A stretch of 64,000 nucleotides of DNA. Origin: an uncultured Gammaproteobacteria bacterium (lineage in GTDB: Bacteria > Patescibacteriota > Microgenomatia > CAZETR01 > Amesbacteraceae). Each line of letters opens with the position of its first letter. Position 1 is the stretch's first letter. Below are positions 2,120 through 57,361 of the stretch, piece by piece. The stretch lies in NCBI GenBank assembly GCA_964502885.1, contig CAZCXU010000002.1, forward strand, positions 27,843 to 91,842. Reading direction: 5' to 3'. The position numbers and the translations under genes were made by a program. The notes below the pieces were generated by a model. That model was not told the origin of the DNA. It made no database searches and saw nothing but the letters and a program-made list of their open reading frames with translations.

Positions 2120-2761
2120 GTGGGGAAAGGAGCAAAAAAATTAGTAACCCTGGCGGCGTTGGCTACCATAACAGGAACCGGAGCCTGGGTTCTCCCATAT
2201 TTTGTGGGTGAGAAAGTTGTCAGCGTGATAGATGGAGATTCATTTAAGATAAAAAATGACCAAACAATCCGCATGGCCAGCCTGGATGCACCGGAAAATG
2301 ATTTGTGCGGGGGCAAAGAAGCGACAGAGGCATTGAGAAGTATGATTGGAAATAAAAAGGTAATTTTAAGAGATATGAAAACCGACAGATACGGAAGGAT
2401 ACTTGCGTTGGTGTATCTGCCAAACGGAACATTGATAAATGAACAGATGGTCAAACACGGTTATGCGCAGACCACCACCGAAGCCGGAGATGAGAACGAA
2501 AGGGTGAAAGCGGCGAATGATTTTGCACGGGAAAATAAATTGGGCATTTATGCGGAAAGATGTTCACCGACTAATCCACCTGATCCGAAATGCAGAATTA
2601 AGGCAAACTACAATTATTACGACAGGACAAATTATTATTTTTTGCCTGATTGCAGACATTATGAGAAAGTGGTGGTGAAGCGGTACCAGGGTGATAATTG
2701 GTTTTGCAGCGAAAAAGAGGCAAAAGCCGCAGGATTTGAAAGATCGGAAAGCTGTAAATGA
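2120..2761 (+). CDS. Thermonuclease (staphylococcal nuclease, SNase-like) family protein with N-terminal signal/anchor and C-terminal Cys-containing accessory domain
   Basis: GTG start. A hydrophobic N-terminus is followed by IDGDSFKIK...IRMASLDAPE...RYGRILALVY...NEQMVKHGYA, a typical SNase core. The C-terminal ~55 aa (CRIKANYNYYDRTNYYFLPDC...WFCSEKEAKAAGFERSESC) looks like the small Cys-bracketed domain often appended to secreted nucleases. Confidence 0.75.
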   Translation: MGKGAKKLVTLAALATITGTGAWVLPYFVGEKVVSVIDGDSFKIKNDQTIRMASLDAPENDLCGGKEATEALRSMIGNKKVILRDMKTDRYGRILALVYLPNGTLINEQMVKHGYAQTTTEAGDENERVKAANDFARENKLGIYAERCSPTNPPDPKCRIKANYNYYDRTNYYFLPDCRHYEKVVVKRYQGDNWFCSEKEAKAAGFERSESCK

Positions 2762-2763
2762 GT

Positions 2764-3330
2764 CTAGCCGTCGGGGTCGGGAGGCAGAAATTCCTCACCG
2801 TTTGGGGCGGGATTGTAGTCCGATTTCAGCCATTCGACAAATGTGCAGCCAGTGGCTTTTCGGGCTTCCCTATCCCATCCGGCTGTTGAACATTTTTTCA
2901 TCTTTTTGCCAGCGCTGGTAGTAAACAATACTAAGGGTTCCTGACACTTGGGACACTTTTCGTCTAAAGCTTCCGTAGTGCCATTTAACCATTCAACATA
3001 ATCGCAGCCATCGACTTTTTTTGTGGTGGAGTTCCAGACACCAGCGCTGCACTTTTTCATCTTTTTGCCAAATCTGGTGGCCTGTAAAACCAATGGAGAA
3101 CCGCATTTGGGACAGGTTTCATCTAAAGTTTTGGGTTCAAACGGGAGCCATTTTACATAATCACAACCGGTGGGTTTTACCTTGGGATTCCACGGCCCTG
3201 CGGTGCTGCATCTTTGAAGTCGTTTGCCGGTGGATGTCTCGATCACTTCTCCCAGTGATGCGCCACATTTGGGGCATTTATCTGTTTGATCCATGTATGG
3301 AGAGTACCACCGGTCGCTACATAATTGCAA
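2764..3330 (-). CDS. Protein made of three tandem GRF-type/topoisomerase-like zinc-ribbon repeats (putative ssDNA-binding zinc-finger protein)
   Basis: Three ~57-aa repeats each carry CPKCG...(K)KCS...GCDY/FVEW. The Cys spacing and the C-terminal C-x-F/Y-V-E-W resemble zf-GRF (C.CG...GR.F..C...C.FF.W) and zf-C4_Topoisom. The start is either TTG 3330 or ATG 3294. Confidence 0.6.
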   Translation of the reverse strand: MQLCSDRWYSPYMDQTDKCPKCGASLGEVIETSTGKRLQRCSTAGPWNPKVKPTGCDYVKWLPFEPKTLDETCPKCGSPLVLQATRFGKKMKKCSAGVWNSTTKKVDGCDYVEWLNGTTEALDEKCPKCQEPLVLFTTSAGKKMKKCSTAGWDREARKATGCTFVEWLKSDYNPAPNGEEFLPPDPDG

Positions 3331-3433: not shown

Positions 3434-3979
3434 ATGAAAAAAATCATCTTTGTCACCGGCAATGAGAGAAAGCTCGCCGAGGCCAAGTTGGGATGTCAGT
3501 TGTGCGGGATTGAAGTCGAACAAGTAAAACTCGACATAGATGAGATTCAGTCAGATGATCCGGCAGCAATATCGGAAGCTAAGGCAAAAGACGCATTTGA
3601 AAAACTAGAAAAACCGCTGGTAGTTACCGATACTTCGTGGGGCATTCCCGCATTGAATGGATTTCCCGGGGCGTACGCAAAATATGTAGCCAAGTGGTTT
3701 GGAGAAAATGATTTTTTGCACTTGATGAGTGGTAAGGCGGACCGAAGAGTTTCATTTACAGAGTCAATAACTTATATAGATGAAAAGCAGACAAAGAAGT
3801 TTAGTAAGCAATATTGGGGGATGATAGTGGAGACACCAAGAGGCACAGGTAATTCAATCGAAAATGTCTGTGAATTTGACGGGGTGACCCTTGGAGAACG
3901 ACGACAAATGGGTGGATATAGCCATAAGCCGGAAGAGTATATATGGCATGAATTTGCAAAATGGTACTCAAATCTTTAG
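3434..3979 (+). CDS. rdgB: Non-canonical purine NTP pyrophosphatase (Ham1/RdgB/ITPase family)
   Basis: MKKIIFVTGNERKLAEAK matches the Ham1 N-terminal signature (ATGNxxKxxE). Length is 181 aa. Confidence 0.8.
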   Translation: MKKIIFVTGNERKLAEAKLGCQLCGIEVEQVKLDIDEIQSDDPAAISEAKAKDAFEKLEKPLVVTDTSWGIPALNGFPGAYAKYVAKWFGENDFLHLMSGKADRRVSFTESITYIDEKQTKKFSKQYWGMIVETPRGTGNSIENVCEFDGVTLGERRQMGGYSHKPEEYIWHEFAKWYSNL

Positions 3980-4479
3980 ACCAAAAAAAGAAAGACGGGG
4001 CATTTGTGGTACTTTTTAGAGATAACTCAAAGAGTGAAGTATTTTTGGTATACAGGTCGGATTGGCCGATTTGGAACTTGACTGGTGGAGGGATGGAGAA
4101 AAATGAGAACCCAAAAGAAGCAGCAATCCGGGAAGCGTTTGAGGAAACGGGGTTTAAAATCAATATTGTTCGTAAAGTGGGTGTGTATGAATTTGTGGAA
4201 CCAAGAAGTGGCCGGCACATCAACTACAGCCATTTGTTTGAAGGGCGGATTGTATCTGGATCTTTTGTACCGGAATTCCCCGGGTGTCGAGGCCAATGGT
4301 TTCCTCTGGCCAAACTACCAATTGATACGACAGACAGCACAAAGAAGAGGATATATGATGCGGCATATTTTTCCGGTAAGCCGTTTACAAAAAAGTGGTG
4401 CAGATCAACGCTCGTCAATAATTTGCACCTGTTTTTCCGTCATCCAATAGCAGCCGTAAAGTACTTTGGTCGGAAATAA
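3961..4479 (+). CDS. NUDIX hydrolase
   Basis: The Nudix box GGGMEKNENPKEAAIREAFEETG is present (Gx5Ex7REUxEExGU). The gene overlaps the preceding gene by 19 nt. Confidence 0.85.
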   Translation: MVLKSLDQKKKDGAFVVLFRDNSKSEVFLVYRSDWPIWNLTGGGMEKNENPKEAAIREAFEETGFKINIVRKVGVYEFVEPRSGRHINYSHLFEGRIVSGSFVPEFPGCRGQWFPLAKLPIDTTDSTKKRIYDAAYFSGKPFTKKWCRSTLVNNLHLFFRHPIAAVKYFGRK

Positions 4480-13921: not shown

Positions 13922-13925
13922 TATT

Positions 13926-16900
13926 TAACGACCAATTTGCCCCAGGAAACCAAATGCCTCCTGAAGACTACCTACAACTAAGTTAAGAGCATCGTCTGTG
14001 GCCTTGGGAGTAATAGTGACGGTATCTACTGAATAGGCGATGTTCTGAGCCTTATCTTTTGATACGGCACGGAAGTGGTAGACCTTTGATGGAGACAGAC
14101 CGGAAATTATCACCAGGTGGTTGAGTGTCATATTGGTATCTTCCTGAGTCTTTTGGCTATAAGTAGTTCCGGAACCTTCACCAAACTCCACCTGTGAAGT
14201 TGTCAATTCGTCAGTATTCCAGGAAACAACGATTTGGGCGGTCTGGTCAGACTTATTGCCGGAGTTTGTGACTATAGACCCTTCCGCCTGAAGGTCGGAA
14301 ATTAGCGCCGGACGTGTATCTGTGGCGGTATCGAATTTTTGCGGATCAGATACAGCTTCATTCCCGGCTTTGTCACGACCTTTGACGACCAGAGTGTAGG
14401 GAGTTTCGGACTGGAGGTTTTTGATAAGAATGCGATGCAGGCCCTTTACCAGGGTAACGTTTACCTCATCTTTGGCATCGGATGGTTTTCCTGAGGGATA
14501 GTAGGTGACGATGGAACTAACTTCGGTATTGGTTTCCCAACTCACCAGCACAGTCGGCTGGGCAGTGCCTTTTACCTGCTGGATACGAACGGTGGCAATC
14601 TTTGGACGCGGCAGGGTAGAAAAGCTTAGGATAGTCCCCTCGTATTCAGCTGACTCACTGTCAAAAGTATTAATCTTGTAGTAGTACTTTGTGCCGTCTT
14701 CCAAACCTGTCAGCTCCTGAGTGTAGGTGGACTCCGATGTAGAAGTGGAAATAGTGGCTACCCCACCAAAGGCCGTGGTCTTGCCATAATAAATCTTGGC
14801 GCTCGATGCGCCGGTAGTCGTGAACTGGACGTAAGCTGAGGTCAGGCCGGCAGTTTTTATAGCAGCATCTTTGACGGTGGGAGCGGCAGTCGTCGTGAAA
14901 CTTTTCTCTTCGGAGGTGCCTGTATTACCATCTTCGTCCGTCCACTTGGCTTTGTAATAGTAGGTTGTGCCGGGCGAAAGATTGGTCAAGGCAATGGTGT
15001 GACTGGCGACCTGGCTGGAATTACTCGGCTCGACTGACCCATACGAACCGGCGGATGTGCCGAATTGAATTTTTGAATCACAAGTGCGATCGGTAGTCCA
15101 GGTAATAGTGGCCTTTTTGGTAGTTATTGATCCGGCAGTCGGACCGGAAGTGAGCGAAGCTGCTGTAGTGTATTTTCCGGTAGGTGTTTCAGAGACCGAA
15201 CTGGACAAGGCACCGCAATTGTCTGCATCATCGCAAGCCTTTACTTTATAGTAATACTCGATTTGAGACAATCCGGTATCGACATAGGCTGTGCCAGTCG
15301 TAGACCCCTGGTAGGTATATGTCGAATCATTTGTGGAGCGATAGACCTTGTAAGCCGAAATACCGGAACCAACTGATGATGGGGCAGCCCATGAAACCGT
15401 AAGTCTCCAAGTAGAACTGTTTTTTATGGATATATCAGAAACTTCCAAACTGAGAGGTATGCCCGGAGCAGATGTATTGGCTGAAAATGACTGACTGCGG
15501 GCGTTGGCGTAGTCGATAGTACCTCCGTAGATGTCCGGATTTTTGGCGACCACCCAAAAGGTATTGTTTTGCATGGTAGCAAAATTGTCCGGTCCGACCG
15601 CGGTAACTCCGGCGGCAGTCCAGTTGCAGTGTTCGGCAGCATTTTCCGCAGTCGGCTGGCGATTAACCATGTAGCAATAACGAAGTTCTGATGACGCCCC
15701 AAGGTAACTACCAGAATCTGGCGCGTTCCAAGTGAAAGTAAATTCATTGACCGACTTAGTCTCATCGTCCACCGCAAGATTGTTTACCGGCCCAGGACCG
15801 GAACCGGCATAATAAAAAGTGACATAGCTTGGTGAAGCGGTAGCGTTGCCGGCATTATCGATGGCCCGAACATAGAATCTATTGGCCCCGCTGGTATAGG
15901 CGATATCGGTCAGAGAAATTGATGTTGAAGTGGTGGTAGAAGACCAGTCTGCCAATTCCGCCGAAGATGTGGCGGCATATTGGTATCCGGCAAGACTGGA
16001 ATCTGAGTCTGAAATTGCAGTCCAACTAAAACTGAATGAGTTTTGGCTGGTGTAGACTTCGGGGGAAACCGAAATTACGGGAGCTCCGGGAGCCGTGCCA
16101 TCGTACTTGTAAGTAAAAGCATCCGTGGTCTGACTTTTGTTGCCGGCGTTATCCAGCGCCTTGATTAATAAATGCAACTCCCCTGACTGGGTGGCAGTTA
16201 CTGAATAAGTAGTGCCGGCCTGAAAAGCCCCGTCGGTTTCCGGATCCGGATTTGAGTCCGTGAGACCAAAATAGACATAGTAACCAGACACACCAGCTCC
16301 GGTATCAGTGGAACCGTCCCACGAGAAGTAAAGCCGATTTTCGCCATACCACTGGGTATCCCCGCCGGTAATGATATCCCCTGAAGCATTGAGGACACGG
16401 GCTTCGGCTGTATCAGGGTCAGAGGGAGGGGTTGTATCGGTAGTACCATCGACACGGAGAGAATTGATCTGGACCTGCTGTGTACCATCCCCGGAAAGAA
16501 CTGCCCGCCAGAGGATCCCGTTTGAATTGACAGGGAATGAGGAAATATTTGAATTGATGTCTGATACTGAACTGGATTCGCCCAGGGAACTGCAAGCGGT
16601 GGTTGTCCAGGCAGAGTTGTACCAATACTTCCAGGTGGTTCCATTGTCGCTGGATATACAGTATTTAATAGTCCCCACTGCCGATACATCGGCAGTAAAG
16701 CCGCTCCAATCGTCTATCTGGGTAGTCAAACGTTTGGTGACAGGCTGTAGAGTGACGGCTGATGATGAGTATGGAGCAAGAACGAAGGAACTAGGTGATC
16801 TGGCAGTACCAGATACTCGCAGTTCATCAATGACAGCATCCAGGAATCCCCGTCCCGACCAGGTCTGGGAGCTACCATAAGAAGTACCCACAAGAAGCGG

Positions 16901-19900
16901 TCGAGCGGAATTCTCTAATGTGATAGTGCCAGAATCGTTGTTTGTCTGGACGCTACCATCTATATACATAGAAGCAGATGTGCCATTGTAGACTACGGCA
17001 TAATGATGCCAATCAGTCGGAGATGAAATGGCGGAATCTGATTCAACATATAAATTGTCTCCATAAGACCAAACTGTAGTTTCTGTCTGGTTTGAATCTC
17101 CGGTACCGGCATATAACTTACCTTTGAAAGCAGTCAATCCGTAGACGGAGTTTATGTTATCAGTTTCCAACCAAGTGTTGTTGTCCAGACCATCACCTCC
17201 GACCTGAGTCCAGGAAGTGCCGTCAAACCGCCAAACTTCTCCCTCGGCGTCACCACTGGATAGCCCGGCAAAAAGATAGCCGTTGTAAACTGTCAGTGAA
17301 CGGACGATTTCATAATCGGCCCCCCAACCTCCATATCCGGAGTCAGCACCGAGTCCGGCCACCTGCGTCCATGCCGACCCATCGTATTTGTAAACTTTGG
17401 CGTCACCAGTCGAAGCGCCCAGGCCGGCATAGAGTTCGTTGTTGTACATGGCCAGCGAATAGACACCCTCGATACCATGAGTATTCCACCAGGAACCATT
17501 GGCTGGCGCGGAAGTGGCCCCGGCATTGGCGATCTGGGTCCAGGTACCGGCTGTTTTGTTGTAGCTCCAGACATCACCATCACCCGCCGAAATACCCAAT
17601 CCGGCATATAACGTACCCGCATCGCTGATCAAACTGAGTACCGACTCAATATTGTCCGCATCCTGCCAACCAGTAGCGAGGGCGGGAGATTTTCTACCGG
17701 CAATCTGAGACCAGGTGTCTGCGGTGCCGTCGTACTGATAAACTTTTCCATCATCTGTCGAAAGACCAAGACCAGCGTACAAGTAACTGGAGTCGGAGGA
17801 GAGGCTGTATATGGCTTCGATATTGTCGGCATCCACCCATGAACCAGTCTTGCCTGATCCGTGCCCGCCAATCTGCGACCAGGCTGACCCGCTGTATTTC
17901 CATACCTGGCCGTCGTCACTGTTGGTAGTGTTTCCAAGTCCGGCATAAAGATCGCCACGATAATCAACCAAGCTCTCAACGGTTTCAATGGTGTTGTAAG
18001 CCCAGCTACTGTTAGTCTGCTGACCTCCAACAAGAGACCAAGTGGACCCATCGTACTCCCAAACAGTGGAATCACCGGTACCGGAACCTGTACCGGCATA
18101 GAGTTTTCCTGCCCTGGTGCTAAGCGACATAACCCGATCAAGTCCGTTGTAGCCCCAACTACCGTACTTGTACTGTGTACCTACAAGCTCCCAGGAGCCA
18201 GTATATTTCCAAAGCTGGCCCAAACCAGCGCTATTTGTATAAACCCCCGCATAAAGAGTGGAACCATCGAGGAGCATTGACCTGACATAAAGGTAATTAG
18301 CTCCTGTCCAGGTGGAGTTGACACCATCTCCGCCCAGCTTGGTCCAGCCAGCTGTATTGTTACAAGTAGAAGCCAAATCACAACTCCAAACCTCGGCGTC
18401 ACCTCCACTATCTCCAAGGGCGACATACAATGTGTCCGATCCGGCCTGATCATCGACTGCCAATTTCCAGATGCGTTCGAATGCATTGTTCCAGGACTGA
18501 GGCGCTGTACCTGAACCCGTGTTGCCATCAACAAGCGCTGTCCCCCCCCAGGCATTGGCACCGGTGCAGTTGGATGTGTCGGTATAGTTGCAACTCCAAA
18601 CTTCGGCATCACCAGCGGAAGCACCCAATCCTGCCAGTAACTGAATATCCCCTGATGTGTCTGTGTAGCTGGTGATGGTCATAACAGCCTCATAAGCGCT
18701 GTTTGCCCAGCTGCCGAGCGTGCCATCGCCGCCGATTTTTGTCCATCCGGCAGTTCTGGTGCATCCCGAAGACGTATCACAAGCCCACAATTCCGCTTCG
18801 CCAGTCGTATTGCCAAGACCGACATGAATGCGGTCTCCAATGAAATGAATGGCCCAAACCTGATCGTATCCTGAGTTCCAGCTATAGCCAGCAGAGGCAC
18901 TTCCTGAGTCACCGCCAATTTGAGTCCAACCTGTAGTTTTTGTACAAGCCACAGAAAGATCGCAGGTCCAAAGATCTCCTTCTGAAGCCCCATTACCTGT
19001 GCCGACGTAGAGATTTGTTCCATTGACTGCCAGAGCTGTGATCATATTTATGCCGGTATTCCAGCTATAGCCTGCGGAAGTACTACCGGAGTCACCACCG
19101 ATCTGATTCCAGGAAGTCTCTGATGAGTCGTAGTACCAAAGATCGGCATCACCGTCGCCGTTGCCCATGCCGACAATGAGATCATCACCATAGGCAACCA
19201 TCTGGGTAACCTCGTCGTATTGGTTGTCCGGCCAGCTACTGTATAAGGAATTGCCGCCTATGCGGGTCCATGAGTTGGTACCATCGAAACGCCAGACTTC
19301 AGCATCACCATTTGAGTAACCAGTGCCGGCATAAATATATGAACCAACTTTTACCAGAGAACTGACGCTCATCTTTCCGTCGGCGTCCCAACTGAGGCCA
19401 ATTTCACCACCGGCCTTCTGCGCCCATGTCTGGGTGGTGTTTGGCATAGCCTCGTAAACCAACTTGCCGGTCTGATTGTCAAAGTACATTTTGTATTCGC
19501 CTTTGTCGAGAATGTATTGCCTGTCCGGGTGTGTCCCTGCCGAAAAAGAATTATTGAATTTGACCCAAGATTCAAGAGTGTGCGAGCTTGAATCAGAAAG
19601 CGAGACGGCGTTTCCAGTGTCCGGTACGGAAATGTATGTGGCGGAACCATCAAGCTTTAAAGCACCAACTCCGGTACCAGTACCATCCAGTTTACCGGAG
19701 GTCCAAAGAACAGAGGGCGTCGGATTCGGGAGATTAAGCGTCCCATGATTTGAGCCAGTACTGGAGTCAGTGACGGTGGTCCCGGAAAGATCATCAAAGT
19801 GGGCCAGAAATTTGGTATTTGCATCGGATGAGTAGTTTCTGACTTTGAGCCGTGCAGAGGAACCGGTAATTTCGATAAGACTTGAATCGGAAAGAGTGTA

Positions 19901-20089
19901 CTGGTCAGCAGAAACAAATGTCCATTGATAGTGGCCGGCGCCTGATGAGTCGGCCAGAATAGGAGCCACACGCAGAGTTGTAAAAGCACCGGTAAGAAAA
20001 CCTAAAGTGAATCCCAAGACCACCAGAAGATTGAACTGCCACCGCATAAAGGTGACATGGCTATTTATTTTTGGCAGGAAATATGACAT
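13926..20089 (-). CDS. Giant (~2,050-aa) cell-surface protein: signal/anchor, LamG (concanavalin-like) domain interrupted by ~16 beta-propeller-like repeats, then multiple fibronectin type III domains
   Basis: N-terminal TM LLVVLGFTLGFLTGAF. The first LamG half is ATYISVPDTGNAVSLSDSSSHTLESWVKF. There are ~16 repeats of ~50-55 aa with consensus LYAG(L/T)G..GDAEVW.YDGS.WTQIGG. The second LamG half is DWHHYAVVYNGTSASMYIDG...GFLDAVIDELRVS. The C-terminus has at least 5 Fn3-like modules (YKVYRS...YYYKVKA; TYYYKAKWTDEDGN; TKYYYKINTFD; TPYTLVVKGRDKAGN; KVYHFRAVSKD). Confidence 0.85.
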
Positions 20090-20284
20090 GAAAATGGCTT
20101 TTAAATCCGGTTTACTGACAATTTTTACACTTAGGCCACGCAGCAATCTCCAATGAAGTGGCTTTCTTATGTATGGTAACTATATCCCGCAGAGATAATT
20201 CCTGTAAATAAGGTGTTATCGCCAGTTTTTTTTAAATTCGATTAGATAACCTGCCGGATATCCATTCATGATATTCTGATAGTG

Positions 20285-37148: not shown

Positions 37149-40100
37149 TTAGGGCAAATTTGACACGTCGAAGTCGATGTAGACTGTGCCTGCGGGTTTG
37201 ACACTGGTGGGGATGAGACTGGACATGCTTATAGTGGACCAGGCCGACCAACTATTGGTAGATACTGTGAGTGTCCGTTTGTAGACATTCTGACCGTTTG
37301 AAGATAGAGCGTATTGGTGAATCAAATCACTGGTTTCCTGATAATAGTCGATTGAAGTAGCTGAATCACCGTTTGGTAAACCGGTAATTGTGGCGTAGGT
37401 TGTGGACCAACCGGACAAGGGAGTGTAGCCTGATCCGTTCCAAGGAGCTGTGCGAGCATAGAAGACCTGGTCTCCTGTGCTGGGCTTGGCATAAAGAACT
37501 GACTGCTTAATGAGGGGGGTGCCGGAATTGGTGAGTACTTCTTCATCAAATCCATACTGAGTCCTGCCTACCGCCGGCAAGTCCAAGGCCGACGAAGCCC
37601 AGGCGTTGTACTGTCCGTAATAACTGCCAGCCCAGGGAGCTTCACGGTAATAGACACGACCATCGCCGGCATATAAGAAAGATTGTTTGAGGGCCTTGTC
37701 TGACTGCTGGCTTTTTACGACATAGTTGAGCGACTTTACTGGGACATTGATACTCATCTCGGTGACATTGCGGGAAGTCCAGGGAGTCCAAGAGTTGTCA
37801 TCTCCCTGATAACGGGTAAGAATTTCGGTGCCACCTGCAACAACCGCTGTCTGAATGACCTTTTTGTGCGGGACAGTGAAACGATAACTGGGCGCAGATG
37901 ACCAGGCTCCGGAATACACGGCGTGAACCCAAATATTGTAGGTGCGGCCCGGTTGGAAATGGTAACTAAATGATGATGCAGATATGGTCGAACAAATATC
38001 TCCTTCGGAAGAATTGATACAGTTCCAAGGGTCACTTTCATCGTTTATGCGAAGACCTGACTCAGTAGCTCCAGCTGGAAGCGTCCAGGAAATTGTCTGT
38101 TTGCCGGCATTTTGAGCTGAAACTGTGAGGTTGGTAGGCGCGAGTAATGGGGTAGGCGTGGGGGGCGGACGAGTGGGAGTGGGAGTATTGGTAGGGACGA
38201 TGGTCCCAGGAACAGTTACTACTCGTGAAACGGACCCTGACCATCCACTGGCATATACAGCATGGACCCAAATGTTGTAGGTACGGCCAGCCACAAAATT
38301 ATGAACATGAGATGAACCTGAAATGGTAGAGCATGCGTCTCCAGGGTTAGGAATACAGGAACCGTTCCATGGATTTGAGGTATCGTCTACCCTGACCCCT
38401 GATCCAACAGCCCCAGAGGGAAGATTCCAACTAATAGTCTGATTTCCAGGCGAGACGCTACTAACTGTTAAGTTATTGGGCAAGGGAAGTGGTGTGGGTG
38501 TAATAGCTCCCTGAAGCAAATCGTTTATCTCAACCATGTAAGTATCCTTTCCATAGTTTATGGCTGAGTCATTGCGCATCTGTCTGGTAGCTCCGGTGGT
38601 ATTGTTTTTTAATGTGACGTTTCCGGTGGAATTGACTGTAACCTGAAGCTCGTAAGTACGACTTACTCTTCCATTTGCAGGATTATCGACATGGTAGTAA
38701 TAGATGGATGACTTGGGTTTATTTGCCGTGGACGCACTGTTTGCAGCCGCAAAAGTCGCGGGGGAAATGTAAATATGGGCCCACATCTTTTTGTAATCGT
38801 TTTCATCGGCCATAATCAAAATCTCCTTTTCTTTCATAAATACCGGATAATTGATCAAATTTGCGGAACTGTGGTTGTAGAGTATTTTTCCACCAGCGCC
38901 ACCCGGGGAAACAATCTGAGATTCAACTTTTAGCAAGGACTTCCAGGTGCCAGCAGGGAAGTACACATATGAATCATTGGCGGTGGCGTCTTCGAATATC
39001 GGCCTGACCAATAGGGCATTGCCAAACATGAATTCGTTGCGAGGGTCTTTTTTGACGGCGTTTGTGACCGAAAGATCTGGATTATAAAAGTCATATAGCT
39101 TATATACCTCAGGATCGTTAGGATAATCGAAGAAAAGCGGTCGGGTGACGTACATTGACCCAGTCTCGTAGCTGCGCATAGCCTGATCATAGGCATATTG
39201 ATGCAATCTGTTCCTGAGTTTCCCGTAAAATATTAAAGCGTTTTTCACTGTAGTATTGGAGGTTTTGTCGAAAGGTACTGAGAAAATGGTGGCTCCCTGA
39301 AACACAGCTAACTGATTGGAGCGGAGAAAGACGTTGTTGTTTATGGTTCTGTTTGTGTTGCGAGTGCCATCTGGATTGAGAACGCCCTCATTATAGACAT
39401 CGTTGTAGAAAGTGACATTTTGTACTACCGGGTATCCCGACATAACTTCAGTAATTGCAGAGTCCAGTTGATACTTAAGTATGTAAGTGAGACGTTGGTC
39501 AAAATGGCCACGAATATCTTCGTGTATGTAGTCGGGAACTACCACGTCGGCAGGATTTGCGATCCAGGAATTGCGGGCAAGAATTACGAACTGATTTCCC
39601 AATCTATTGGTATAGTGCGGCATAAAGAGCGGGCCATAATTGTCACCTAAGTTTTGGGGTACTCCTGCAGGAGCAACTGTGGGAACACGATTTGGACCCA
39701 TAAACGAAACCACTTTGGCCTGATCATGTGCAGTCATGTCGTCAAACTTGACTCCTCCAAAATTGCCATAACCGGTCAAGGAGGCCCCATCGCCAGAACG
39801 AATAAGGTCAATCCAGCGATTAATCACCTGCGCAGTCGGAGAAAGCAAATAATGATCATCGCCGGGATCATTGCGGTTTGGGCCCATATACATGCGATTT
39901 GCGTCTATGAGTGGGTTACTTATCCCTACCTGCGAGAACTTGCTGAGGATTAAATTTTTATGCTTGAGATTCTGCGAATCATTTGCGGCATTGTCCAGTG
40001 ACTCATATTGAGTGACTCGCTGACGCATGCCTATCAAGGGAACCGTACCTCGACCTGTCAATGCTTTGTTGGGATGATTGGAAGTGCTGGTCAAAAATGA

Positions 40101-41189
40101 GTACCACTGACTTAGGCCGCTAATTCCACCCCAACGATCCTGATTTACCAATAATGAGTCAGTGGTGCGGATAGGATATTGAGCAGGTCCCCCAACATCC
40201 TGAGGTCCACACCCAGGCAGCTTATCACTGGCCCAGTATCCAGAACCGATTGTCGCAGTGGTAAGGACAATTTTCTGGTCAAGATACCAGTTTACCCTGG
40301 CCATGGCATCGGTGCGATTGGCAGCACAACCGAGATCTCCAAACGTCTCCCACCCGGGACCAAAAGCCATATAGGTAGGCTCTTTGTCGTAGTAGCCCAG
40401 CTCCGTTTTGATTTGCTTGTATGCCTGATAAACTTCATCAAGAGTGGGTTTTTTGATGATGATCAGCTCTTTTTGAGTAGCAAAGTTGGTTTGCCCATCC
40501 CCCAGTTTCATTACTATGCAGGTATTGCGATCTCCGCAACTGAATTCATTTGTACGCGACAATCTAACAACTTTTGAATAGGGCTGCAGGTAGGCAATCA
40601 GCAGCTTCTGTTCGGGGATGACAAAGATGGGGGTCCGCATCCGGCATGACGATGCCCACTTTTCATTTCGCTCCCTGCCTGAGGCAGTAATTTTGGTGTC
40701 GACACAGTGGCTGTAGCTGAAATTTTCATCGGTAAAATCTGCCAAAGCGGCCTGATTGGTAATGACGTGCATACCGGCTCCAAAAACCTGAGGCGCTGGT
40801 TTACCTGTGATAAATGGCAGTCTGAATTCATATCTTTCCTGATTGCAGTTGGTTGTATAGGGAGCACAAGTAAAACCACTAGCCTTGACAATAAAGGCAC
40901 CCTCAGACACCTTGGAGACTGTAAGCTTGGCGTTGTCGGCACTAGTGTTGTTTCCAAAAATAAGATCTCCCCCCGTCACTCTCTCAAGCTCGGTGATATT
41001 GGAAGTGGAGGTGCTAGCAGAAGCAGAAAGATTTGTCTGAGTTTGAGTCAATTGTCTGGTGACACCTACAATGGAAAAAAGACCAAATACAAACAATATT
41101 CCACCAAATATTAAGCCGTGTTTTGGATTGGATATTTTGAGCGGAGGAATGTGCACTGACTTACGAGGTGATGTTAAATAGAAGCCCAT
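37149..41189 (-). CDS. Membrane-anchored giant glycoside hydrolase, GH31-like catalytic region with C-terminal tandem ~114-aa beta-sandwich repeats
   Basis: N-terminal TM GLIFGGILFVFGLFSIVGV. The central region has GH31-like segments GVKFDDM, MFGNALLVRPIF and YVYFPAGTW. Two tandem repeats end in GRTYNIWVHAVY. Confidence 0.65.
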   Translation of the reverse strand: MGFYLTSPRKSVHIPPLKISNPKHGLIFGGILFVFGLFSIVGVTRQLTQTQTNLSASASTSTSNITELERVTGGDLIFGNNTSADNAKLTVSKVSEGAFIVKASGFTCAPYTTNCNQERYEFRLPFITGKPAPQVFGAGMHVITNQAALADFTDENFSYSHCVDTKITASGRERNEKWASSCRMRTPIFVIPEQKLLIAYLQPYSKVVRLSRTNEFSCGDRNTCIVMKLGDGQTNFATQKELIIIKKPTLDEVYQAYKQIKTELGYYDKEPTYMAFGPGWETFGDLGCAANRTDAMARVNWYLDQKIVLTTATIGSGYWASDKLPGCGPQDVGGPAQYPIRTTDSLLVNQDRWGGISGLSQWYSFLTSTSNHPNKALTGRGTVPLIGMRQRVTQYESLDNAANDSQNLKHKNLILSKFSQVGISNPLIDANRMYMGPNRNDPGDDHYLLSPTAQVINRWIDLIRSGDGASLTGYGNFGGVKFDDMTAHDQAKVVSFMGPNRVPTVAPAGVPQNLGDNYGPLFMPHYTNRLGNQFVILARNSWIANPADVVVPDYIHEDIRGHFDQRLTYILKYQLDSAITEVMSGYPVVQNVTFYNDVYNEGVLNPDGTRNTNRTINNNVFLRSNQLAVFQGATIFSVPFDKTSNTTVKNALIFYGKLRNRLHQYAYDQAMRSYETGSMYVTRPLFFDYPNDPEVYKLYDFYNPDLSVTNAVKKDPRNEFMFGNALLVRPIFEDATANDSYVYFPAGTWKSLLKVESQIVSPGGAGGKILYNHSSANLINYPVFMKEKEILIMADENDYKKMWAHIYISPATFAAANSASTANKPKSSIYYYHVDNPANGRVSRTYELQVTVNSTGNVTLKNNTTGATRQMRNDSAINYGKDTYMVEINDLLQGAITPTPLPLPNNLTVSSVSPGNQTISWNLPSGAVGSGVRVDDTSNPWNGSCIPNPGDACSTISGSSHVHNFVAGRTYNIWVHAVYASGWSGSVSRVVTVPGTIVPTNTPTPTRPPPTPTPLLAPTNLTVSAQNAGKQTISWTLPAGATESGLRINDESDPWNCINSSEGDICSTISASSFSYHFQPGRTYNIWVHAVYSGAWSSAPSYRFTVPHKKVIQTAVVAGGTEILTRYQGDDNSWTPWTSRNVTEMSINVPVKSLNYVVKSQQSDKALKQSFLYAGDGRVYYREAPWAGSYYGQYNAWASSALDLPAVGRTQYGFDEEVLTNSGTPLIKQSVLYAKPSTGDQVFYARTAPWNGSGYTPLSGWSTTYATITGLPNGDSATSIDYYQETSDLIHQYALSSNGQNVYKRTLTVSTNSWSAWSTISMSSLIPTSVKPAGTVYIDFDVSNLP
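37870..38540 (-). repeat. Tandem duplication of a ~342-nt coding unit (two homologous beta-sandwich modules) inside the GH31-like gene
   Basis: DNA ~37921-37967 is homologous to 38263-38310 (tgaacccaaatattgtaggtgcggcc versus tggacccaaatgttgtaggtacggcc). The protein repeats are ...SFSYHFQPGRTYNIWVHAVY and ...SSHVHNFVAGRTYNIWVHAVY. Confidence 0.7.
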
Positions 41190-54397: not shown

Positions 54398-55975
54398 TTA
54401 ACCAGGAATGGCAACTTCTTTGATAATAAGCTGCAATTTGGGAATTCCTGAAAAAGTATTCGCATCAAGAGAATAGTAAATTTTTGCCGGGAAGTCCGGG
54501 AAAACCATATCAAAAGGAGCGTTAAAGTAAATGGCCTCCAAATTGTCGGCATAAAATTTGAGATGGCGGTTGTCCTTACCTATACGTCTCGGGTAAGTCA
54601 GGCGGGCGACTGATGAAAAAACGGGGCGGGGGTTACCCAAGCCAAATGGGGCGAAGACGGAAAGCTGTTTTTGTAAATCCAAGCTGGATGCTGATAAAGG
54701 TATATCAGCATCGACCTGGCGTTGTCTCACAAATAAATCCGGCGTGATGAGTTTGGTACACTCTGAGATAAGTTTATCTGTTACCGCAGACAGATTTTCC
54801 GGCGCAAAAGAAAGCCCGGCTGCCATTTCGTGACCGCCAACTGATTTTAATAAAGATGAAGCTGTGCGTAATAGCTCTGTAATGTGGATGCCAGGGATTG
54901 ATCTGGCGGAACCTTTTGCCAGAACCTCACCTAGATTTATAGCTATAGAGGGGCGATAGTACTTCTCGACCAAACGGGCAGCAATCAAACCTACTATCCC
55001 CTCGTCATAGTCCGGGTTAGCCGTGACTAATATTGGCGGAAGTACTCCTGAAGAGAATTGGGAAATGGCGGATTCCGACAAACGCAAAGTAAGATCCTGA
55101 CGGATGCGATTGGTGGCGTCCAAATGAGAAGCGAGATCCAAAGCTCGTTCTGAATCAGTTGTACAAAGTAACCTCAGACTATCTATGGCATGTTCAAGCC
55201 TACCTGTGGCATTGAGACGTGGACCAATGACAAATCCAATCTCATAGGCGCCAATGGGTTTGCCGGTAATTCCTGCGAGCTGAAACAGAGCAAGCAGCCC
55301 GGGACGATGAGTGCGATTTAATTCTTCCAAACCGTATTTTGCGAAACTGCGATTTAGTCCCAGCAAAGGAACAAGATCGCAAACAACCGAAATTGCGACT
55401 AAAGAAAGAAGCTCGTTGTTTGGTGCCTTGTTGAATTCTCTGGCAAATATCCAGGAGAGACCAGCAGCGCTGGTGCTTGTGGAATGAACAATGCAGTTGG
55501 CGTTGGGAAGCTGGTCGGGGGGGGAATGATGATCAACAATAATGGTGTCGCAACCATTTGAGCGACAATAGGCGATTTCTTCCCTAGCGGTAATACCATT
55601 ATCAACAGTAATAATTAATTTCGCACCCTGAGACAAACAGTGATCAATGCCTTTTTTTGTGAGACCATAGCCCTCAATACGACGATGAGGGATGTGGGGA
55701 AAAACATGGGGAGAGACATGATATAAAGTCTCCCAGAGAATAGCTGTAGAAGTAATGCCATCAACGTCGTAATCACCATAAATGGCAATTTTGTCACCGG
55801 AAGCTATGTGAAATTTAACTAACTGGACTGCTTGGGAAATGTGTCTTTTTGATAAACCAACTTCCGCCAAAGAAAATTCGGATGGGTGGCGGGGATTAAG
55901 AAATTCAGAGATTCCCTCAGGGGTGTTTATGCCTCTTTTTTCCAGAAGATGTGCGATGATCTCAGAAACTTGCAT
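54398..55975 (-). CDS. recJ: Single-stranded-DNA-specific exonuclease RecJ
   Basis: DHH motifs IAIYGDYDVDGITSTAIL, IIVDHH and the DHHA1-like GGHEMAAGLS. Confidence 0.9.
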   Translation of the reverse strand: MQVSEIIAHLLEKRGINTPEGISEFLNPRHPSEFSLAEVGLSKRHISQAVQLVKFHIASGDKIAIYGDYDVDGITSTAILWETLYHVSPHVFPHIPHRRIEGYGLTKKGIDHCLSQGAKLIITVDNGITAREEIAYCRSNGCDTIIVDHHSPPDQLPNANCIVHSTSTSAAGLSWIFAREFNKAPNNELLSLVAISVVCDLVPLLGLNRSFAKYGLEELNRTHRPGLLALFQLAGITGKPIGAYEIGFVIGPRLNATGRLEHAIDSLRLLCTTDSERALDLASHLDATNRIRQDLTLRLSESAISQFSSGVLPPILVTANPDYDEGIVGLIAARLVEKYYRPSIAINLGEVLAKGSARSIPGIHITELLRTASSLLKSVGGHEMAAGLSFAPENLSAVTDKLISECTKLITPDLFVRQRQVDADIPLSASSLDLQKQLSVFAPFGLGNPRPVFSSVARLTYPRRIGKDNRHLKFYADNLEAIYFNAPFDMVFPDFPAKIYYSLDANTFSGIPKLQLIIKEVAIPG

Positions 55976-55985
55976 GCTACAATTT

Positions 55986-57361
55986 TAACAGGCATGATGA
56001 CAACTTCTCATACACTCAAATTCTCGGCTCCGGACGAGGTGGTGCAGCTAATGGATAGGTTTGAAAAAAATGGATATGAAATCTTTATCGTCGGGGGTGT
56101 GGTGAGGGATGTGCTCCTAGAACGGCCACTGTATGACTGGGACTTTACAACAAATGCCACCCCTGAGGAAATTATGAAATTGATACCTGACAGTTTTTAT
56201 GATAACCGATTTGGAACGGTGGGAATAAAGAATTCCGGACGACCTTTTGAAGTAACTACCTACCGGACGGAAAGACAGTACACGAATTCAAGACATCCGG
56301 ATGTGGTGGAGTGGGGAAAAACATTGGAAGAAGATTTAAAGAGACGGGATTTCACGATTAATGCCATGGCAATAAAAAAAATCGGTGCGGGAAAATTTTC
56401 CCTGATAGATCTATTTAACGGACAGAAAGACATTGCAGCCAAACAGATAAGGGCAGTCGGTAACGCGACAGAGCGATTTCAAGAAGATGCCCTACGGATG
56501 ATGCGAGCAGTCAGAATCGCAACCCAGCTGGGATTTGCAATTGAAGAGGAAACATTTTTGGCGATTAAAGAAAATGCAAATAGAATAAATCTGATTTCAG
56601 CAGAGCGAATACGTGATGAGCTATTAAAGATTCTGGCCTCTGATTTTCCAGCTGATGGCATACAACTTCTCAGAAACTGTGAGTTGTCGTTTGCAATTTT
56701 GCCTGAGCTGGATGCGGCCTTTGGTGTAGAACAAAAAAGTCCCGGGAGACACCATATATATGACGTAGGAACGCATAGTGTGGAATCATTACGGAATTGT
56801 CCAAGTGCAGAACCAATAACACGACTCGCAACACTGATACACGACCTAGGCAAAGTGAAAACGCAAAGAAAGTACCCGGATGGGCGTATTACTTTTTATA
56901 ACCATGAAATGGAGAGTGAAAAAATTGCAAAGCGGATAGCTGATCGACTGCGTTTTTCAAAAGAGCAGAAAGAGAAACTGGTACGATTGGTGCGTTGGCA
57001 CCAGTTCACCGTGGATGAACATCAGACAGATAGTGCAGTGAGGAGGTTTATCACTAATGTGGGAGCAGAAAATGTGCATGAAATGCTGGCCTTACGGACC
57101 GGAGATCGGCTGGGTGGAGGGGCGAAGGAAACCAGCTGGCGACTTGAAGACTTTAAGAAGCGGCTGGTAGAGGTGCAGAAACAACCGTTTTCAGTGGCTG
57201 ACCTGAAGATATCAGGACATGACGTAATGGAGGTAAAGAAATTGCCTCCAGGACCTGGAGTGGGAAAATACTTGAGCATCCTATTTGACCAAGTAGTGGA
57301 AAACAAATTACCCAATGAACGAGAGGTATTGCTTGAGGCGCTACAGAAAGTAACTATTTAG
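55986..57361 (+). CDS. cca: CCA-adding tRNA nucleotidyltransferase (PolyA polymerase family head domain + HD domain)
   Basis: GGVVRDVLL...DWDFTT is the NTase head (GGxVRD). RRDFTINAMA is present. The C-terminal HD region is HHIYDVGTHS...LIHDLGK. The start is trimmed to ATGATG 55986, because the track's TTG start would overlap recJ. Confidence 0.85.

Follow-up and report, generated by a model that had tools for sequence, protein, structure and literature searches.

We find that a small gene encodes a stand-alone array of three tandem C4 zinc ribbons, apparently of the kind found at the C terminus of type IA topoisomerases (Topo_C_ZnRpt, PF01396 lineage). It lies in a 64,000-nucleotide stretch of contig CAZCXU010000002.1 (GenBank assembly GCA_964502885.1, positions 27,843 to 91,842), hereafter the window. 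On our analysis the protein is probably a YrdD-like accessory single-stranded DNA (ssDNA)-binding factor of Microgenomates, built from long-loop topoisomerase-type ribbons; we put the probability of this reading at roughly 0.6. The minus-strand open reading frame (ORF) 2764..3330 is present in the window, and the view taken of its product in a preliminary description, as a stand-alone protein with three tandem zinc ribbons and without a catalytic domain, is borne out: it consists only of tandem Topo-type ribbons. The gene and its parts are as follows.

2764..3294, minus strand: triple zinc-ribbon coding sequence, 176 amino acids (aa), ATG at 3294, stop codon included
3148..3276, minus strand: ribbon 1 (C7-W49), CPKCGASLGEVIETSTGKRLQRCSTAGPWNPKVKPTGCDYVKW; CPKCG...LQRCS...GCDYVKW
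2989..3114, minus strand: ribbon 2 (C61-W102), CPKCGSPLVLQATRFGKKMKKCSAGVWNSTTKKVDGCDYVEW; CPKCG...KKCS...GCDYVEW
2830..2955, minus strand: ribbon 3 (C114-W155), CPKCQEPLVLFTTSAGKKMKKCSTAGWDREARKATGCTFVEW; CPKCQ...KKCS...GCTFVEW
2779..2799, minus strand: GEEFLPP motif of the acidic C-terminal tail; G166, E167, E168, L170, P171 and P172 at least 90% conserved

The ORF as listed reaches a TTG at 3330. In homologues, which are 174-181 aa long, the start falls on an internal ATG of this ORF, at 3294, and this ATG is most likely the real start codon; one homologue, P0001, has 176 aa and is 99% identical. The repeats follow one another with a period of 53-54 aa (about 57 aa had been given earlier) and share 49-58% pairwise identity. 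Each reads CPxC-x17-C-x13/15-C and closes with C-[DT]-[YF]-V-x-W. In an alignment of 104 homologues, all 12 cysteines are invariant or nearly so (C7, C10, C29 and C44 of ribbon 1 strictly). The same holds for the ribbon-ending tryptophan, for another tryptophan within each long loop and for large parts of both linkers. Because each repeat is separately conserved in these homologues, the three repeats are far beyond chance. Ribbon 2, which gives the best Zn_ribbon_Top1 match of the three, has an invariant T73-R74-F75-G76-K77. Purifying selection acts strongly on each ribbon and on both linkers. The acidic tail comprises 19 residues with a net charge of -5, and each ribbon carries about +3. We rejected a fragment or pseudogene, since length, start and all cysteines are conserved over hundreds of genomes. 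A promoter and terminator scan around the gene gave nothing better than shuffled sequence.

The family is found mostly in one class. A word-indexed search returned 2163 homologues, the best 120 of which are all 166-206 aa long and 66-99% identical; named carriers among these 120 are Gottesman-, Ames-, Collier-, Shapiro-, Woese- and Daviesbacteria. Relatives are encoded in at least 576 stretches of species-representative genomes, mostly Microgenomates, and identity across Microgenomates lineages is 65-80%. A HMMER scan over all of 1.84 billion cluster representatives gave only 220 clusters at E up to 0.001, in which the three-ribbon family is essentially one 50%-identity cluster plus fragments. 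The triplication is older than the Microgenomates radiation. Conservation of the protein far exceeds that of its neighbors, with 65-76% identity against about 40% for the SNase-family nuclease in the same genomes, and is comparable to that of an ABC ATPase encoded nearby (62-68%). A tblastn search of 50,697 phage records gave no match.

Carrier titles vary. Many metagenome-assembled genomes titled 'uncultured Gammaproteobacteria' or 'uncultured Pseudomonadales' carry the triple-ribbon gene at about 70% identity (for example, L014-L016, L020-L023 and L025-L029). Single carrier contigs are titled Thermodesulfovibrionales, Spirochaetia and Saccharibacteria, and the other named carriers are almost all Microgenomates. 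The titles outside Microgenomates are probably placeholders, wrong taxonomic labels or bin contamination.

The repeats had been described as matching the zf-GRF finger of eukaryotes better than generic zinc ribbons; Pfam, hhalign, hidden Markov model (HMM) scoring and Foldseek all favor the topoisomerase I ribbon instead. The best Pfam match of the whole protein is Zn_ribbon_Top1 (PF01396; E 1.4e-9, 38.1 bits summed over three stretches, against a cut-off of 32 bits), and this model is also the top match for 75 of 87 individual long-loop ribbons. No match to zf-GRF (PF06839; cut-off 25.9 bits) was found for the whole protein or for any repeat at E up to 10. Aligned with hhalign, the long-loop profile matches canonical topoisomerase ribbons with a probability of 96-98% (E 1e-10 to 1e-13). 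It matches GRF with a probability below 7%, which is no better than canonical topoisomerase ribbons do. The GRF side of this comparison rests on 5 sequences, the GRF sequences being from solved structures (APE2, 5U6Z; NEIL3, 7OMK and 7JL5). The canonical ribbon set was drawn from matches to the query; the scoring of YrdD and TopA is an independent control. There, an HMM of the long-loop ribbon gave Escherichia coli YrdD 38.6 bits and the E. coli TopA C terminus 17.5 bits, which independently confirms profile-level homology to topoisomerase ribbons; solved GRF domains scored 0.6-5 bits. When a GRF profile made from solved structures was run over 5.8 billion proteins, it retrieved only seven fragments, all eukaryote-like, and the bacterial ribbons studied here were not among them.

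What speaks for GRF is a likeness of motif and a series of sub-threshold scores. The order G-[KR]-x-hydrophobic-x-x-C, a 13-15-residue loop and then C-x-[YF]-[VI]-x-W is shared with eukaryotic zf-GRF, and the endings after the fourth cysteine (CDYVKW, CDYVEW and CTFVEW) are of GRF type. PF06839 appears below threshold in 13 of the 87 related long-loop ribbons (best E 1.5e-3), and the five such matches that we inspected run end to end at 12-16 bits (profile positions 2-43 of 45). PF23549, a GRF-like model with a cut-off of 27 bits, scores the whole protein at 19 bits. However, the phenylalanine of GRxF, three residues before the third cysteine, is Leu or Met here (GKRLQRC, GKKMKKC and GKKMKKC), with GKKFxKC in some distant relatives. 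The first knuckle of zf-GRF is CxC or CxxH, whereas here it is CxxC with a proline, preceded by a predicted beta-1 strand. Thus, the GRF-like look holds for the C-terminal half of each ribbon, that is, the long loop between the third and fourth cysteines and the C-x-[YF]-[VI]-x-W ending; membership of the GRF family does not, as there is no significant sequence, profile or fold match. We class the repeat as a topoisomerase I ribbon of a long-loop subtype whose ending is GRF-like, and not as a GRF finger.

Foldseek matches of the predicted structures, weak in E-value, rank in the same direction. The AlphaFold model of the whole protein is all-beta (pLDDT 71.5), and its best Foldseek matches are E. 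coli TopA entries 9gda_F and 4rul_A (probability 0.89, about 152 columns). An AlphaFold 2 model of a single ribbon, made without zinc, reaches pLDDT 82. Its strands follow the order expected for the four-stranded antiparallel sheet of Topo_C_ZnRpt, and a further hairpin, which carries a conserved tryptophan, is inserted between the third and fourth cysteines. Its best match in the PDB is 4rul_A (probability 0.90, TM 0.60, weak E 1.3) and in BFVD a phage DNA topoisomerase (probability 0.98). No GRF structure was among the Foldseek matches of the whole model or of the single ribbon, so similarity in fold to the solved GRF domains 5U6Z, 7JL5 and 7OMK finds no support there. In the model, the knuckle is preceded by a beta-1 strand. 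Topo_C_ZnRpt has this strand too, and GRF domains are described as lacking it (PMC9369019).

The same long-loop ribbon occurs in other proteins. It stands C-terminal to the Toprim and Topoisom_bac domains of type IA topoisomerases P0143, P0153, P0193 and P0215, and the nearest relatives of P0143 with the same catalytic domains (P0283, P0284 and P0286) have the long-loop motif at their C terminus. Canonical short ribbons occupy that place in 116 of the 119 other topoisomerases from the P0143 homologue search. Elsewhere, the ribbon is fused to ERF (P0180, E 1e-29), Rad52 (P0159), phage family phrog_11717 and Rho_N (P0142), and many small proteins of phage type have it, among them one whose contig also holds portal and terminase genes. 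In several long-loop proteins, the C terminus is an acidic D-[FY] tip that resembles that of SSB, the bacterial ssDNA-binding protein. The closest relatives outside the family are the C-terminal modules of type IA topoisomerases and of phage ssDNA-annealing proteins. Most of the recognizable partners (type IA topoisomerases, ERF and Rad52) handle single DNA strands, which argues for ssDNA binding; the nucleic-acid-binding role proposed from the sequence is plausible.

Several of these proteins are worth recording in their own right. Among annealing proteins of the ERF, Rad52 and phrog_11717 kinds, P0180 (L093 1974-2645), P0159, P0173, P0185 and P0241 carry a C-terminal long-loop ribbon followed by an acidic tail that ends in D-F or E-L, as SSB tips do. 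P0201 (L094 7001-7555) and about 60 similar proteins of 100-200 aa combine an N-terminal domain of about 65 aa (PEA-x-ASVTYS...GF..LFT.R) with one long-loop zinc ribbon, and many add a C-terminal helical segment (ATPAQ...L.....W.EGMTK.EA). Pfam and PHROG return nothing for them beyond a sub-threshold PF01396 match on the ribbon; the phage contig of P0201 has portal, terminase and HNH genes. In P0153 and P0193, tryptophan stands at conserved Gly and Arg sites (DPDWEW for DPDREG, WIWRPSTY for GIGRPSTY). This pattern points to genomes in which UGA codes for Gly (code 25, Gracilibacteria/Absconditabacteria) and whose genes were translated with UGA as Trp.

Two E. coli proteins show how such an array could work. 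Each of the TopA ribbons D5-D7 binds two to three ssDNA nucleotides, mainly by stacking on a beta-3 aromatic and through basic residues, and YrdD, a free array of four such ribbons, is reported to bind ssDNA in a zinc-dependent manner (PMC4678816). Each ribbon of the triple-ribbon protein would bind one zinc through its four cysteines. By homology and from the domain fusions, the three basic ribbons would each hold a few ssDNA nucleotides, like beads on a string. The acidic tail with its EEFLPP motif may recruit a partner enzyme, for which topoisomerase I would be the obvious candidate, or may fold back onto the basic ribbons and mask them.

The likeness to both proteins has limits. With TopA D5-D7 (PDB 4RUL), the ribbons share the CPxCG knuckle, the beta-2/beta-3 hairpin with G-[KR], the four cysteines and the tandem arrangement. 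TopA ribbons are also the best match by Pfam, hhalign and Foldseek, and the long-loop subtype takes the same position in some type IA topoisomerases. Unlike TopA, the triple-ribbon protein has no catalytic domain. The loop between the third and fourth cysteines, mostly 2-7 residues in canonical ribbons, is 13-15 residues here and holds the extra hairpin; the C-x-[YF]-[VI]-x-W ending, Leu or Met in place of the stacking aromatic and the alignment of only half of the Pfam model are further differences. YrdD (b3283, COG0551) is the closer parallel in build, being about 180 aa of tandem Topo-type C4 ribbons and nothing else. However, it has four canonical short-loop ribbons and no EEFLPP tail, its context in E. 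coli (tsaC-yrdD-smg-smf) differs from that of the triple-ribbon gene, and there is no evidence of orthology. Bacterial SSB likewise joins a basic nucleic-acid-binding body to an acidic tail with a hydrophobic motif. This analogy is purely functional: the triple-ribbon protein has no OB fold, and EEFLPP lies inside the tail, whereas the IPF of SSB is terminal. A tblastn search of the sampled loci with E. coli SSB found no SSB and is uninformative.

Several points weigh against a YrdD-like ssDNA-binding factor with topoisomerase-type ribbons. Taken singly, the repeats score 15, 29 and 18.5 bits against PF01396, each below the cut-off. The alignment covers model positions 1-20 of 39 (up to 26 in relatives), and the second knuckle of the model, a short CxxxxC, is replaced by the 13-15-residue loop. 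PDB sequence searches with whole-protein and single-repeat profiles gave nothing significant, with TopA at E of about 1-4 and no GRF entries. Foldseek E-values are weak (0.01 to 1.3), as is expected for a 50-residue domain; their ranking is consistent though. A motif alignment with the E. coli TopA C terminus places Leu or Met at the beta-3 stacking aromatic (F616/Y728 in E. coli), and reviewers have suggested that ribbons without this aromatic may not contact ssDNA (PMC10969213). With Leu or Met there, contacts would rest on the R74-F75 turn, the lysines and the two conserved tryptophans of each ribbon; this turn of ribbon 2, which is invariant, parallels R724-F725 of E. coli D7. Finally, conservation this high suggests that the protein is constrained by more than generic ssDNA binding, for example by a fixed partner.

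Contrary to the first view, an array of this kind is not unusual in bacteria: the stand-alone YrdD of E. coli strings four such ribbons together in 180 aa, and the family is already annotated by NCBI ('topoisomerase DNA-binding C4 zinc finger domain-containing protein') and JGI ('ssDNA-binding Zn-finger/Zn-ribbon topoisomerase 1'). Topo_C_ZnRpt arrays and stand-alone YrdD are already known, and these family names are automatic. The long-loop subtype, the strict conservation of the triple array and tail motif over a class of the candidate phyla radiation (CPR), and the spread of the subtype into phage recombination proteins appear to be undescribed in the resources that we searched. The big picture is unchanged. 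Nonetheless, PF01396 covers half of the long-loop ribbon, and CPR and phage proteins would be better annotated with a dedicated model. Among small proteins of the whole CPR class, the triple-ribbon protein ranks with the better conserved, and its tail motif is conserved as well, which makes it a likely core factor of DNA metabolism in minimal genomes. The long-loop subtype also offers a testable link from bacterial topoisomerase ribbons to eukaryotic GRF fingers.

A first alternative, which is also a narrower form of the main reading, is that topoisomerase I is split in these bacteria: the ssDNA-binding C-terminal region of TopA would be encoded separately, as a universally conserved polypeptide, and work in trans with a ribbon-less TopA core, to which EEFLPP docks. 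This is possible but unlikely. In its favor is a Rosetta-stone argument, as in other lineages a covalent fusion joins the same subtype to type IA topoisomerases; conservation as high as that of the nearby ABC ATPase and the conserved tail motif fit as well. However, a free array need not mean that TopA is truncated, as E. coli has a full-length TopA alongside the stand-alone YrdD. Nor was there synteny with topA in our sample of 85 non-redundant loci. No type IA catalytic domain was detected in the 64-kb window or in these related loci (about 1 Mb in total). Together with independent conservation in the species genomes counted above, this also shows that the gene is not a detached fragment of a neighboring topoisomerase gene, a possibility that had been raised at the outset. 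The P0143 homologue search for a Microgenomates TopA gave few named matches, and these were enzymes of Mollicutes (Tenericutes) and Erysipelotrichaceae. We considered P0208 as a Microgenomates TopA and rejected it on its Firmicute-type context, with an EzrA gene and a dprA-topA-GIDA-family gene-integrase order.

The long-loop ribbon might instead be an undelineated prokaryotic and phage family that bridges the topoisomerase I ribbon and zf-GRF, and maybe the stock from which zf-GRF arose. We hold this to be doubtful. Its first half is Topo-like and its second half GRF-like, and it is appended to type IA topoisomerases as GRF is in TOP3A. The resemblance to zf-GRF extends to motif order, the long loop before the last cysteine, the aromatic-x-Trp after it and a presumed role in ssDNA binding.

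Zinc ribbons are common in RNA polymerase and ribosome roles, and E. coli TopA ribbons contact RNA polymerase. The protein could be an RNA-binding factor, or one associated with RNA polymerase or the ribosome, that is specific to Microgenomates and not primarily DNA-binding; we regard this as improbable. The protein is small and basic, its conservation is near that of ribosomal proteins, and there are weak generic matches to Nop10, RPB9 and TFIIB-type ribbons. In 13 of the 85 loci, moreover, the immediate neighbor is homologous to a gene of L007 for an rRNA methyltransferase of the RrnaAD (KsgA) type. However, the generic matches span only the CPxCG knuckle, no linkage to ribosomal or RNA polymerase genes is conserved, and every informative fusion is to a DNA-strand-handling protein (topoisomerases, ERF and Rad52). 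That the repeats are bacterial zf-GRF fingers, as in eukaryotic APE2, NEIL3 and TOP3A, is the least credible of the alternatives and very improbable on the profile, fold and motif comparisons given above.

The triple-ribbon protein, which we continue to read as a probable YrdD-like factor, has no fixed genomic company. Its neighbors in the window are those that had been named, an SNase homologue and Ham1/RdgB-like and Nudix genes:

2120..2761, plus strand: nuclease of the SNase family, hydrophobic segment at the N terminus, sunset domain at the C terminus; convergent neighbor
3434..3979, plus strand: Ham1/RdgB-like nucleoside triphosphate pyrophosphatase; divergent neighbor
3961..4479, plus strand: Nudix hydrolase, overlapping the Ham1 gene by 19 nt

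The SNase gene lies tail to tail with the triple-ribbon gene, with 2 bp between the stop codons. Among the 85 loci, the SNase neighbor recurs in 5, and the Ham1 gene and this Nudix gene are found in 1, the window itself. No neighbor gene is universal among these loci, and synteny is lineage-specific. Because the neighborhood is not conserved, the nucleic-acid salvage or sanitizing locus that had been proposed from it is not supported. In 27 of the 85 loci a 107-aa protein stands immediately next to the gene, and in 19 a probable membrane protein of 137 aa does.

In Collierbacteria-type lineages, these two small proteins, both unannotated, flank the gene (L001 7632-7955, 8594-9007 and equivalents). 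The sunset domain at the C terminus of the SNase (2597-2746, plus strand) was recognized by NCBIfam NF051437 at 28.4 bits against a cut-off of 27; this module also occurs in NCBIfam sunset-domain variant models for ribosomal proteins L4, L17 and L20.

Other features of the window lie apart from the triple-ribbon gene. A SAM-I/IV riboswitch aptamer is located at 858-985 on the plus strand (Rfam RF01725; score 47.9 bits, gathering score 41.1), and the 366-aa ORF directly downstream of it (1003-2103) reads, from its sequence, as a putative metK (S-adenosylmethionine synthetase). Two giant minus-strand ORFs, 13925-20146 (2073 aa) and 37149-41189 (1346 aa), contain fibronectin type III domains, along with a purple-acid-phosphatase N-terminal domain or a GH31 C-terminal domain, and are probably cell-surface proteins. 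A recJ-like ORF (54398-55975, minus strand) and an ORF of the CCA-adding/poly(A) polymerase family (55886-57361, plus strand) are divergent. As listed, their 5' ends share 90 nt, so that at least one of the two start codons probably lies further downstream.

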